From positions 10,393 through 74,392 of the forward strand of contig CAYGPK010000001.1 of NCBI GenBank assembly GCA_964351975.1: a stretch of DNA of 64,000 nucleotides, read 5' to 3'. The notes beneath the pieces were generated by a model, which did not search any database, had not been told where the DNA came from, and saw nothing but the letters and a program-made list of their open reading frames with translations. This DNA comes from an uncultured Methanosarcinales archaeon (GTDB lineage Archaea > Nanobdellota > Nanobdellia > Woesearchaeales > UBA583). The translations under genes and the position numbers were made by a program. Shown piece after piece: positions 9,306 through 12,210 of the stretch (its first letter is position 1; each line of letters opens with the position of its first letter).

Positions 9306-10097
9306 ATGGATTTTCATCTTTTTGCAAAAAAAAAAGATAGTGAAGAGATTAAGCAAGCTCAAGACGTTAAGTCTGCAACTCAAGAAAATAGTAATACTGC
9401 TCCTCCTGCTTTTCAAAACGAATTTAATAATATAGATACGAACAATATGGATGAGACTCAAGATACTTTTAATAACCCTTTCTCAAATAACCAAAGTGAA
9501 AATCAAGATCTGAATTCACAGAACAATAATAATAGTAATAATACATCTACACAGAAAAACCCTTTTGAAAATACAATGCCTATGGAAAATAATAATAATA
9601 ATTCAATCCCTAACACTCCTAATATGAATCAAAATACTCAGATGCAACAACCTCAGGTTAATGAAAATCAAGATTTTGAAAATTTAGAGAATAACAATAG
9701 AACTTCTTATTCAAAAGAAGAAGTTCAAGAAATTATTGATGAAACTGTTGAAAAAGTTATTGAAGAGAGATGGGGACAAATAGTTGCTAAAGTTGATAAA
9801 GTTGTTAGTTGGAAAGATAAACAAGAATCTCAAATTAATTTAATCAAAGAAGATGTTCTTACAATGAAAGAAGGTGTTGAAAAACTTGAAAAAAGATTAA
9901 TTGGGAAAATTGAATCTTACGATAAAAATATTTTAGATGTTAACTCTGAAATTAAAGCACTTGAAAAAGTGTTTCAAAAAATTACACCTACACTTGTTAA
10001 CAATGTTAATGAACTTTCTAAAATTACTAGAGGATTAAAAGAATCTAAAAATAATCCTTATGATGACAAAAGAAATCAAGATAAAGATATTGAGTAA
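9306..10097 (+). CDS. Hypothetical protein, N/Q-rich disordered N-half and coiled-coil C-half
   Basis: Composition; heptad pattern after EEVQEIIDETVEKVIEERW. Confidence 0.7.
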   Translation: MDFHLFAKKKDSEEIKQAQDVKSATQENSNTAPPAFQNEFNNIDTNNMDETQDTFNNPFSNNQSENQDLNSQNNNNSNNTSTQKNPFENTMPMENNNNNSIPNTPNMNQNTQMQQPQVNENQDFENLENNNRTSYSKEEVQEIIDETVEKVIEERWGQIVAKVDKVVSWKDKQESQINLIKEDVLTMKEGVEKLEKRLIGKIESYDKNILDVNSEIKALEKVFQKITPTLVNNVNELSKITRGLKESKNNPYDDKRNQDKDIE

Positions 10098-10112
10098 ATA
10101 ATATTTTAACTA

Positions 10113-10790
10113 TTATCTAAATAAAGAAAAACTTCTTGCTTTTGTTTCAACAAGTCCTTGTTTTTTAATTTCAAATGTTTTTGAAACTCCTTCTTTTTTG
10201 TGTTTGTGTTTTTTTAATGTAACGGTTCTTATATCTTGATCTTTATCAAATTCAACTATAGTTTTTGACCAATACTCTATTACATTTCCACCTACCATCT
10301 TTTTCTCTTTAGTATCAAAAGTTGTATACATTTGATTTACTGCAATTACAGGAATATGAAAGGTTCTTGAAATCTCAGTTAATAAACGTAGTTGTTCTCC
10401 TAATTCAGAATTTATTTTTTGTGGTGAATCTCCAAGCTTTAACCTGTAAAGCATAACGAGCGAATCGATTATTACAAGTCCAACTTGGTTAGAATTTTTT
10501 ATTTGTTTGTTTAAACTAAAAATTGTTTTTTGTTGCTCTTCAAAACTTTTTGGAGAAAAAACTAATATGTCACTTAAATTAATTTCTGGGTTTATCTGCT
10601 TTAATCTCTCAGGTGAAAATCCACCTTCAGTATCAATGTAGATTACTTTTTTTCCTTTTTCTACAGCTTTGATTATATATTCAAAACATATAGTTGTTTT
10701 TCCAGAACCAGGAGGCCCATAGATTGTTGTTATGGTATCACTTTTTAATTCACCTATTATCTCATCAAAAAATGTGTTCAGTTTCAACAT
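10113..10790 (-). CDS. radB: DNA repair protein RadB
   Basis: GPPGSGKT Walker A, YIDTEGGFSPERL, IIDS, NQ, C-terminal KH basic patch; 225 aa without RadA N-domain. Confidence 0.92.
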   Translation of the reverse strand: MLKLNTFFDEIIGELKSDTITTIYGPPGSGKTTICFEYIIKAVEKGKKVIYIDTEGGFSPERLKQINPEINLSDILVFSPKSFEEQQKTIFSLNKQIKNSNQVGLVIIDSLVMLYRLKLGDSPQKINSELGEQLRLLTEISRTFHIPVIAVNQMYTTFDTKEKKMVGGNVIEYWSKTIVEFDKDQDIRTVTLKKHKHKKEGVSKTFEIKKQGLVETKARSFSLFR

Positions 10791-10861
10791 TTGAAACCTC
10801 CAATTTTTTGTGGTATTTGTTTTTCAAAAAATACATCGAAGAATGAATTTAATTTTAGCAT
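10784..10861 (-). CDS. Leader ORF, 25 aa (MLKLNSFFDVFFEKQIPQKIGGFKC), copying the RadB N-terminus
   Basis: Manual translation; TATA ~22 nt upstream; 8/9 aa identical to RadB start; GGAGG; TGA overlaps radB start. Confidence 0.7.
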   Translation of the reverse strand: MLKLNSFFDVFFEKQIPQKIGGFKC

Positions 10862-10998
10862 GTTATTATTAAAGTATTCTTATTTATAAAAAATTGCTAT
10901 TTAAAAAATTAAAAACTGTTTAGGTGTTGGATAAATTAAATTTGATTAGGATAAAATTTTATTGAATTATTTTTAATTAAATTAAATCTTAGTTATAT

Positions 10999-12210
10999 AT
11001 GGAATTTGTATTTTTAATTTTTGTTGTAATACTTGGAATAATTTTTGGAATAATTAGTGGCTTAATACCTGGTATTCATATTAATATGGTTTCAACTTTC
11101 TTAGTTTCTAATGTTTTGTTTCTTTCAAATTTTTTTACAATAGAGCAAATAATTATTTTTATTATTTCAATGAGCGTTACTCATACTTTTTTTGATTTTA
11201 TTCCTTCTATATTAATTGGAGTTCCTGACTCTGATACTTGCTTATCAATTTTGCCTGGACAAGCTTTAGTTTTAGAAGGGGAGGCTTACAAGGCTATCTT
11301 TTTAAGTGCACTTGGAAGTCTATTAGGTTGTATGATCTCATTTGGCGCAGCATTTATCTTTTACTATAGTTTAGACTCACTATACAGCGCTTTTAAGGTT
11401 TATGTACCATATATTTTGATTATAAGTATATTTGTTTTATTAGGTATGGAGAAGAACAATAACAGTAGATTTTGGAGTTTGATAGTTATTTTATTTTCAG
11501 GTGGGTATGGAATTTTAATTTTAAATTCAAAGTTGATTTCTGAACCATTATTAATACTCTTTAGTGGAATTTTTGGTGTATCTTCAATTGTTTTCTCTTT
11601 TATGAACAAAGAATCATCATTTCCAGAACAAAACTTCAATATTGATTTTAAATTTGATATTAAAGTTATAAAAGGACTTTTTGTGGGACTATTTAGCTCT
11701 TCTATATGCTCTATTACACCAGGGATTGGAAATTCTCAAGCTGCAATACTATCTTCTGTATTTTTTAAGAACATAACATCAGAAATTTTCATAATTGTAC
11801 TTGGAAGTATTAATACAATTGGATTTATTCTTAGTATAATTACTTTTTATTTAATTGAGAGGGCAAGAAATGGAAGTATTGTTGCAATTTCACAAATAGT
11901 AACTGAATTTACAATACAAAATGTTTTCTTATACTTTTCAATTGTATTTTTTGTCTCAATAATCTCATTTGTACTTATGATTAAAGTAGGAAAAATAATG
12001 ATAAAATCAGTTTCAAAAGTTAATATTAAATATGTAAATCTTTTTGTTTTATCTTTAATATTTTTAATTGTATTTATCTTTGATTCCTTTTATGGTATCT
12101 TTGTTTTAATTGGGTGTGCTTTTTTAGGATTATTTTGTTTATCACTTGATGTTAAAAGAGTTCATTTAATGAGCGTACTTTTAATTCCAGTTATATTGAA
12201 TTTGATTTAA
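10999..12210 (+). CDS. Tripartite tricarboxylate transporter TctA-family permease (archaeal type)
   Basis: GLIPGIHIN, FIPSILIGVPD, LPG motifs; polytopic. Confidence 0.85.
   Translation: MEFVFLIFVVILGIIFGIISGLIPGIHINMVSTFLVSNVLFLSNFFTIEQIIIFIISMSVTHTFFDFIPSILIGVPDSDTCLSILPGQALVLEGEAYKAIFLSALGSLLGCMISFGAAFIFYYSLDSLYSAFKVYVPYILIISIFVLLGMEKNNNSRFWSLIVILFSGGYGILILNSKLISEPLLILFSGIFGVSSIVFSFMNKESSFPEQNFNIDFKFDIKVIKGLFVGLFSSSICSITPGIGNSQAAILSSVFFKNITSEIFIIVLGSINTIGFILSIITFYLIERARNGSIVAISQIVTEFTIQNVFLYFSIVFFVSIISFVLMIKVGKIMIKSVSKVNIKYVNLFVLSLIFLIVFIFDSFYGIFVLIGCAFLGLFCLSLDVKRVHLMSVLLIPVILNLI

Follow-up and report, generated by a model that had tools for sequence, protein, structure and literature searches.

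Results

Layout of the radB leader

The DNA analyzed here is a window of 64,000 nt (positions 10,393 to 74,392 of contig CAYGPK010000001.1, GenBank assembly GCA_964351975.1) from the genome of an uncultured DPANN archaeon of the Woesearchaeales, and the subject of this report is the 5′ end of its radB gene, where a short open reading frame (ORF) repeats the N-terminus of RadB. The genome, called G000 below, is a 13-contig metagenome bin of 1.137 Mb with 27% GC. All features of the locus lie on the minus strand. The radB gene itself (10113..10790) encodes a RecA-family ATPase of 225 aa with the Walker A motif GPPGSGKT, and the protein begins MLKLNTFFDEII. Upstream lies a leader ORF (10784..10861) of 25 codons and a TGA that translates as MLKLNSFFDVFFEKQIPQKIGGFKC. 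The leader remains open through the segment that separates it from radB and ends 7 nt beyond the first base of the radB ATG, with its TGA (10786-10784) inside radB codons 2-3 in the string ATGTTGA.

The first part of the leader, which we call the echo (10834..10861), consists of ATG, eight further codons, and a G, and reads ATG CTA AAA TTA AAT TCA TTC TTC GAT from 10861 onward (MLKLNSFFD). The corresponding start of radB, the in-gene copy (10763..10790), reads ATG TTG AAA CTG AAC ACA TTT TTT GAT G. Over nine codons the copies differ at 8 of 27 nt: seven changes, in five codons, are synonymous, and the single non-synonymous one replaces TCA (Ser) with ACA (Thr) at residue 6. The seven differences at codons for identical amino acids exceed the 2.96 expected from random synonymous coding (P=0.013). 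Several codons of the in-gene copy are rare (CTG 1%, TTG 8%, AAC 14%). The two ATGs stand 71 nt apart, so the leader and radB are in different frames. The coordinates and the description of this leader given by an earlier, sequence-only reading of the window were confirmed when the locus was re-read.

A 43-nt insert (10791..10833) separates the copies. A hairpin (10803..10834) directly follows the echo and can form either as GTATTT/AAATAC (10834-10813) or as an alternative 8-bp stem, ATTTTTTG/CAAAAAAT (10832-10803; shuffle P=0.05). A Shine-Dalgarno (SD)-like GGAGG (10797..10801) precedes the radB ATG by 11 nt. This GGAGG is paired in the predicted fold with leader codons 8-9 (CTTCGAT), the mean probability of being unpaired over the SD is 0.12, and it is the rare leader codons TTC TTC GAT that pair with the SD; the fold of the radB leader as a whole is unremarkable (z-score -0.17). 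The insert has no Rfam match and no significant similarity to the promoter, and a C(A/G)CC-A-run-(C/T)TGGAG segment of it is common to two metagenome contigs, L090 and L091, that carry related radB loci. On the upstream side, a TATA-like box, TTTATAAA (10883..10890), starts 29 nt before the leader ATG. Farther upstream, at 10905-10960, is the motif TTTATCC(N)AAA; in most congeners it likewise stands before the TATA box of radB, often twice, and its enrichment across the genome is only mild (120 matches vs 84.5 expected).

Chance and assembly

How often such echoes occur was examined genome-wide at the starts of ORFs 80 aa or longer; for the null, each N-terminus was paired with the upstream region of another gene. 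In G000, echoes matching at least 8 of 10 aa were found twice against 0.013 expected per genome, and those matching at least 7 of 10 aa three times against 0.073 expected. The resemblance at radB is thus not fortuitous. A Logan contig of one sequencing run (X1) covers positions 10000-10948 with 0 differences, and a contig of a second run (X2) covers 10724-11400 with three differing letters; neither contains indels or joints. One of the X2 differences, 10779 C>T on the plus strand, lies within the in-gene copy and is synonymous in radB codon 4 (CTG to CTA). Since both runs may be the source of this DNA, the agreement is a check of the assembly and not an independent sample.

radB in related genomes

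RadB was matched in all 41 related genomes searched, and no leader ORF echoing its N-terminus was present in the 19 congeners. In 10 of these 19, TTTATAAA starts 29-31 nt before the candidate radB ATG, and a looser TATA pattern at -27 to -31 was found in 14 of 19. SD-like strings before radB are rare (4 of 19, all weak). The position of the TATA box in the congeners and the rarity of SD strings indicate that radB is leaderless in the genus. In G000, TTTATAAA stands at -29 of the upstream ATG, while none precedes the present radB ATG, which has GGAGG instead. A leaderless mRNA start at the upstream ATG, as the sequence-only reading had supposed, is thus plausible.

The closest RadB proteins (73% identity) are encoded on L090 and L091, and both have a homologous radB leader. 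L090 carries two radB units, one more than L091, to which it is ~94% identical. The copies of L090 are unlike its own in-gene N-terminus (MLKLNCFFD and MLKINNFFD vs MLKIGSFFD): the promoter-nearest copy, MLKLNCFFD, resembles the G000 copies, and the in-gene start has changed to MLKIGSFFD. Between the L090 and L091 echoes there are three synonymous and no non-synonymous changes, and the leader tail has changed. The stems that follow the four radB units of G000, L090, and L091 are wholly different in sequence, yet all pair (shuffle P=0.05, 0.007, 0.000, and 0.003). Apart from the second L090 unit, no extra echo genes were seen among the neighbors in the fetched loci, in a scan limited to ORFs complete within the locus, which therefore missed smc and topA.

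Echoes at the 5′ ends of other genes

Three to five protein genes of G000 have an echo at the 5′ end. The smc gene is preceded by MLYIKRLKLK (in-gene MSYIKRLKLK), 93 nt away, with GGAGGG and a TAG stop preceding the true start; topA, encoding topoisomerase I, by MTYELII (in-gene MSYELII), 118 nt away, with AGGAGG; and alaS, a 586-aa gene resembling alanyl-tRNA synthetase (AlaRS), by MKPEKLIKK (in-gene MKIDKLIKK), 103 nt away. Among congeners, smc echoes were found in G007, G004, G014, and G019, the last with two upstream units, topA echoes in G014 and G019, and alaS echoes in G016 and G014. The smc echo is present in 5 of the 17 genus genomes with an examinable smc 5′ region.

Pooled over 13 within-genome pairs of copy and main gene, the proportion of synonymous differences (pS) was 0.85 and that of non-synonymous differences (pN) was 0.062. 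Five smc pairs have no amino-acid difference at all, although they differ at 3-10 nt, and the alaS copies in G014 and in G016 are nucleotide-identical. The copies follow the species-specific N-termini, and identity ends abruptly past the echo (0-1 of the next eight residues match). At the smc start, the codon versions of the copies are interchanged between G004 and G014 (87%), and the smc leader tail is conserved at the nucleotide level across different frames.

The copies appeared to be less alike than synonymous coding would require. The pooled count was 64 differences vs 50.5 expected (P=0.023), for pairs that are not independent, with the two nucleotide-identical alaS pairs left out and the codon usage of G000 applied to all genomes; this is no more than suggestive of selection for nucleotide dissimilarity between copies. 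Two-unit tandem arrays stand beside a single gene at three loci: smc of G019 (L050), radB of L090, and tRNA-Leu-caa of G000 (L127). In the G019 smc array, adjacent copies are less alike in nucleotides than non-adjacent ones (7 and 10 differences vs 3).

The folds of the leaders had z-scores between -1.6 and +1.6, except for that of G000 topA (-3.3). We also considered the spacer as a decayed promoter copy; local alignment of spacer to upstream region was no better than shuffles at radB, smc, topA, and alaS (P 0.23-0.55), and an obviously repeated promoter was seen only at alaS of G014. As for the AlaRS-like ORF of G000 (C2:125035 onward; L033, L073), its 586 aa compare with congener open frames of 585-623 aa, and this short length suggests a split or truncated alanyl-tRNA synthetase. 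In Nanoarchaeum equitans, alanyl-tRNA synthetase is split or truncated.

Reading frames of the leaders

In 14 of 16 units the leader frame is unbroken and its stop falls within -6..+18 nt of the next start, compared with 4 of 32 for the two other frames, taken as controls, and with a mean of 0.195 for shuffled spacers (binomial P ~9e-9, with units that are not all independent). For the radB, smc, and topA units the count is 13 of 13. Judged from these frames and from the layout at radB, the gene is probably expressed through a leaderless start at 10861, termination of the leader at ATGTTGA, and reinitiation or SD-led initiation at 10790. The hand-off of ribosomes from leaderless to SD-led initiation that the sequence-only reading had entertained thus gains comparative support, and both copies bear a coding-constraint signature.

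Echoes at the 3′ ends of tRNA and protein genes

Each echo is directly followed by a hairpin. The topA and alaS leaders have in common one such hairpin, TCAACAAT..ATTYTTGG (TCAAC-AAT..ATT-YTTGG), that proved to be widespread in the genus: it gave 73 matches in 17 of 20 genus genomes, as compared with 1 for the reversed control, and 21 of the copies are in G000 (for example, outside the window, C2:56561-56674, C3:115348-115463, and C8:37895-37915). The base of the stem is conserved, the apical part is variable but always paired, and there is no corresponding Rfam family. The hairpin is always situated between an echo and the intact gene end, and it is found in both orientations relative to the target gene.

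Most of the G000 copies of this hairpin adjoin tRNA genes, where the order is the tRNA, ~30 nt, the hairpin, and an exact duplicate of the final 16 to 52 nt of the tRNA, sometimes followed by a second element and copy. The tRNA copies lie 60-200 nt from the tRNA, sometimes with two elements in opposite orientation. When counted independently of the motif, 14 of the 33 tRNA genes of G000 are followed within 300 nt by a copy, with no more than two mismatches, of their 3′-most 16 nt; none of the 33 has an echo inside the window. Two G000 tRNAs have an upstream copy of their 5′ end, and the Leu-caa and Arg-tct tRNAs each have two downstream echoes.

A nucleotide-level search anchored on the hairpin yielded 40 candidate echoes at 48 distinct sites. 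Among them are echoes of protein C-termini that include the stop codon and lie downstream of the true stop, such as MEERYLKTFHS (in two species), CINPDCGYSKCS, and YARLNL, each with its stop, and YVISYNRKKRQM. Five such hairpin-anchored 3′-end echoes contain 24 synonymous and one non-synonymous coding codon changes, with serine switches between TCN and AGY among them. A motif-free scan of C-termini in G000 found 18 echoes matching at least 6 of 9 aa vs 0.10 expected, and 12 matching at least 7 of 9 aa vs 0.007 expected. Six match at all nine residues while 0-10 nt differ. In the 18 echoes, 51 of 162 codons are changed synonymously and 28 non-synonymously, counts in which amino-acid-based detection favors low non-synonymous numbers. 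For 12 of the 18 there is no in-frame ATG before the echo (six have one).

[quoted passage not shown] The ~90-nt family has inverted-repeat-like ends (GCTCAATCTTTTTT ... AAAAAAGGTTGG), and such an insert (GCTCAATCTTTTTT ... AAAAAAGGTT) stands between a stop codon and the downstream copy of the C-terminal codons. Members in G000 include C4:88139-88227, C8:30130-30218, and C10:18728-18816, with six matches to the strict pattern and ~9 to a looser one. On C7 (minus-orientation index 55552), the last 11 codons and the stop of a 578-codon ORF are encoded by the element (..RKKRQM-QFQKEITTKNS and stop), and the displaced old end (..RKKRDM-KLKEQMK and stop) lies downstream of it. Searches with the covariance models of Rfam 15 gave no match at E<=1 in 12 leader loci; in nine tRNA-echo loci, Rfam returned only the tRNAs and two weak sub-threshold matches overlapping them.

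The inserts range from 23 to 175 nt and contain no ORF, and the duplicated length varies from 17 to 58 nt. The layout in which a gene end is present twice around an insert (duplicate-insert-duplicate) thus recurs in G000 at both ends of protein genes and at the 3′ ends of tRNA genes, as well as in its relatives.

The original copy

To decide which copy is original we used congeners that carry the gene with an empty site. Against the empty-site smc of G016, from which the gene body has diverged by 5.3%, the G007 echo differs at 1 of 30 nt and the G007 in-gene copy at 9 of 30 (P=1.6e-5). The in-gene sequence differs also at positions 32 and 35 and then returns to the background rate, which places the boundary at about +36; all of the differences are synonymous. 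For topA, comparison of G014 with the empty-site G004 gave 1 of 21 for the echo and 5 of 21 for the in-gene copy (P=0.08, weak), and that of G019 was uninformative (3 of 21 vs 4 of 21, P=0.47). The peptide of the G000 alaS echo, MKPEKLIKK, is the sole native start type in G010, G017, and G005.

These alignments indicate that at smc, and more weakly at topA, the upstream copy is native and the in-gene copy is the newcomer. At radB, the position of the promoter and the analogy with smc and topA suggest the same order. The direction assumed by the sequence-only reading, which took the upstream ORF for the duplicate, would therefore be reversed: the upstream ORF would be the original, and the present N-terminus of radB would be the later arrival.

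Discussion

The reading that we favor, with a probability of about 0.58, is that the radB leader is the displaced original start of the gene, lying beside a small hairpin-bearing insert that supplied a recoded start. radB would ancestrally have been leaderless, with the upstream ORF as its first 5′ end. A hairpin segment of 43 nt would then have been inserted after codon 9, together with a second, differently coded copy of the nine codons behind GGAGG; we infer that this recoded copy was imported from elsewhere. The native start would have kept the native promoter and become a leader ORF of 25 codons, with RadB now made from the SD-led ATG. Ribosomes would start leaderless at the old ATG, cross the insert, and terminate on the new ATG, and the terminating ribosomes may reinitiate at 10790 and open the pairing that masks the SD. 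The codon differences would have arisen because each copy has served, at some other time or in a different lineage, as a functional gene end. Units of this kind would have been made throughout the genus by small hairpin or MITE-like inserts without genes, and units are indeed gained or lost between close relatives, as seen with L090 and L091 and with the smc versions of G004 and G014.

As a more tentative proposal, and one that may well turn out to be wrong, gene-less miniature elements could home to gene termini while carrying a differently coded terminus, so that the target stays intact and the mismatched repeats guard against deletion; at 5′ ends, the outcome would be a switch from leaderless to SD-led initiation.

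Several observations weigh against the reading of the radB leader as a displaced start. The hairpin is absent from G013 and from the single-contig genomes G006 and G011, and neither G006 nor G011 has an echo at radB, smc, topA, or alaS; these absences may reflect a difference between lineages or the way in which the genomes were obtained. An empty radB site was not found in any close relative, which leaves analogy and promoter position as the basis for the direction at radB, and the topA tests of direction (P=0.08 and 0.47) are weak. An old duplication that G016 and G004 later lost precisely would fit the empty-site data equally well. Echoes diverge synonymously between species at about the rate of the gene body, which could mean constraint in place, and one echo has diverged far more slowly than intergenic DNA (25% vs 47%). 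In 12 of 19 pairs the in-gene copies are closer between species than the echoes are, so the expectation from a prophage exchange of the e14 type (see below) does not hold consistently. The radB and smc inserts do not contain the TCAAC..CTTGG motif, and their kinship with the hairpin family is therefore only architectural. The variable duplicated length is unlike a fixed target-site duplication. Finally, the recombination genes of G000 comprise one clear tyrosine recombinase and one DDE transposase, no RVT_1 or TnpB exceeded the cut-off, and we identified no enzyme in G000 that would mobilize the inserts. The transposase is the sole DDE_Tnp_1 match (C3:129890-130432, minus strand, in a 414-aa frame); it was considered as a source of the ~90-nt inserts, and reading of its flanks revealed no obvious matching ends. 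Its N-terminal cysteine/histidine-rich stretch resembles a SWIM-type zinc finger.

The same data have to be weighed against four other explanations. The first ~28 nt of the gene, alone or along with a spacer, may have been duplicated in place long ago, with nothing imported. Both copies would have been held under constraint, either because recurrent gain and loss of units lets any copy turn into the real end of the gene or because frequent excision lays the echo open to selection. This would accommodate the near-saturated synonymous sites and low pN of the 13 pairs, the permuted codon versions of the smc start in G004 and G014, the three-copy array of G019, the unit that L090 has and L091 lacks, and the gene-body rate of echo evolution. 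The empty sites could equally result from precise loss of insert and in-gene copy, and the nucleotide-identical alaS copies of G014 and G016 show fresh duplication or conversion. The price would be many precise losses, given an smc echo in 5 of 17 genomes, and parallel amino-acid changes in both copies in each lineage. Moreover, at alaS of G000 it is the echo that has retained the widespread native peptide and the functional copy that has changed, which would be odd had both evolved in place, and 30-nt copies that are 30% diverged are poor substrates for homologous recombination. We therefore regard duplication in place as unlikely, though it deserves serious attention. We give rather less credence to a functional leader N-terminus, acting as a decoy, an autoregulatory nascent peptide, or an assembly competitor. 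The sequence-only reading had argued that a peptide kept while its codons drift must be translated and selected, and the lack of amino-acid differences in the five smc pairs, the tracking of species-specific N-termini, the kept leader frames, and the purely synonymous divergence of the L090 and L091 echoes with a changed tail speak for it. However, the same signature is found in echoes downstream of stop codons (24 vs 1), most of the C-terminal echoes (12 of 18) have no in-frame ATG before them, and tRNA ends are echoed too; synonymous divergence is thus no proof of peptide selection. Four unrelated proteins would each require a recognition partner of their own, the nucleotide-level conservation of the smc leader tail across frames suggests a feature of the RNA or DNA and not of a peptide, and the copies of L090 mismatch their own main N-terminus.

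It is very improbable that the upstream copy becomes the N-terminus of mature RadB, whether by translational bypass, by bulge-helix-bulge (BHB) splicing, or by removal of the 71-nt period from the DNA. In its favor, the two copies share their last echo codon (GAT/GAT), the hairpin starts 1-3 nt later, and deletion of exactly one period would restore the frame. Bypass between the matching N-termini, another suggestion of the sequence-only reading, nevertheless finds no support: there is no stop after the putative take-off codon (GAT GTA TTT), the distances are 71-118 nt, and the standard SD, the ATG, and the overlapping stop fit reinitiation. An archaeal BHB intron of the canonical form (two 3-nt bulges and a 4-bp helix), tested at the repeat period, was not present in radB, and among 15 leaders canonical geometry occurred in three, always at the start codon in AT palindromes and never at the echo boundary. 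The occurrence of the hairpin element in both orientations relative to the target gene argues against a role at the RNA level, and the contigs show no joint, although rare forms would be invisible in them. A chance likeness in AT-rich sequence, or a chimera of two strains created in assembly, would find some room in a 13-contig metagenome bin of 27% GC and in the absence of the hairpin motif from two single-contig genomes of the genus. It is hardly credible, as only 0.013 such echoes are expected per genome, contigs built by a different assembler from two runs give the same locus, homologous leaders occur in contigs from other collections, and the same architecture is present in 17 of 20 genomes.

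The displaced start that we favor at radB has partial parallels in known systems. Phage 21, like the prophage e14, integrates in the 3′ end of the icd gene of Escherichia coli. In the e14 lysogen, icd continues into the prophage, which supplies an end that differs mainly by synonymous changes from the displaced native one, icdC, located on the other side of the prophage; excision swaps the two ends with a burst of synonymous changes (PMC13626634). As at icd in that account, the gene end is here present twice around an insert (at radB, at the tRNAs, and at the other 5′ and 3′ ends), and the in-gene copy is recoded, in a bounded patch in the case of G007 smc when compared with the empty-site relative. 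Unlike e14, which has ~15 kb and its own integrase, the inserts are 23-175 nt long and gene-less, occupy ~40 sites in a 1.1-Mb genome, affect 5′, 3′, and tRNA ends, and have duplicated lengths of 17-58 nt. With one clear tyrosine recombinase for ~40 different sites, a site-specific integrase for each site is inconceivable.

Integration of mobile elements has been proposed to scatter tRNA gene fragments (PMC3293823). As in the integration of archaeal plasmids and viruses into tRNA genes (pNOB8/SSV type), the 3′ part of the tRNA is duplicated beside the intact gene, but the copies are separated by a hairpin element only and not by a kilobase-scale element with a recombinase gene. The inserts resemble MITEs and repetitive extragenic palindromic (REP)-like elements in being short, gene-less, multi-copy, structured, and located at gene boundaries. 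They differ from MITEs, which make short target duplications of fixed length, in that the flanking repeats are 17-58 nt, coding, and often pre-diverged; inverted-repeat-like ends were found only in the ~90-nt family, and the radB insert lacks them. IS1634 generates long direct repeats that vary in length.

Termination-reinitiation and unmasking of the SD are the general mechanism of translationally coupled leader ORFs. The radB leader conforms to it, in that its stop overlaps the main start and the SD lies inside its 3′ end, but it differs from known leader peptides in repeating the downstream N-terminus and in beginning at what would be the former leaderless start of the gene. radB shares with T4 gene 60 a gap that is bordered by matching codons and opens with a hairpin; in contrast to T4 gene 60, there is no stop after the take-off codon, and the gap is longer and holds an SD, an ATG, and nine repeated codons. 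Bypass of this type is also unable to explain the echoes at tRNA and 3′ ends.

In the literature searched we found no description of leader ORFs that repeat the downstream N-terminus, nor of miniature inserts flanked by recoded gene ends; this is absence from that literature and not proof. Codon divergence that preserves a peptide does not by itself identify a selected leader peptide; an insert that introduces or generates a second gene end in different codons leaves the same pattern. In this DPANN genome of 1.1 Mb, small structured inserts are flanked by the duplicates of about 40 gene ends, an apparently undescribed pattern, and the inserts form at least two conserved families spread across the genus. 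Should the inserts be mobile and bring their own address, they would constitute a new kind of element, addressed by the gene end that it carries and not by a recombinase-specific site; if they are not mobile, constraint must act on both copies. In either case, the echoes will mislead the annotation of start sites and gene ends in DPANN genome bins. At the 5′ ends, the units would be natural examples of leaderless genes turned SD-led, with the old start kept as a coupled leader ORF. Such conversion from leaderless to leadered genes bears on how modes of translation initiation change in archaea and, if true, would represent a new route for that change.

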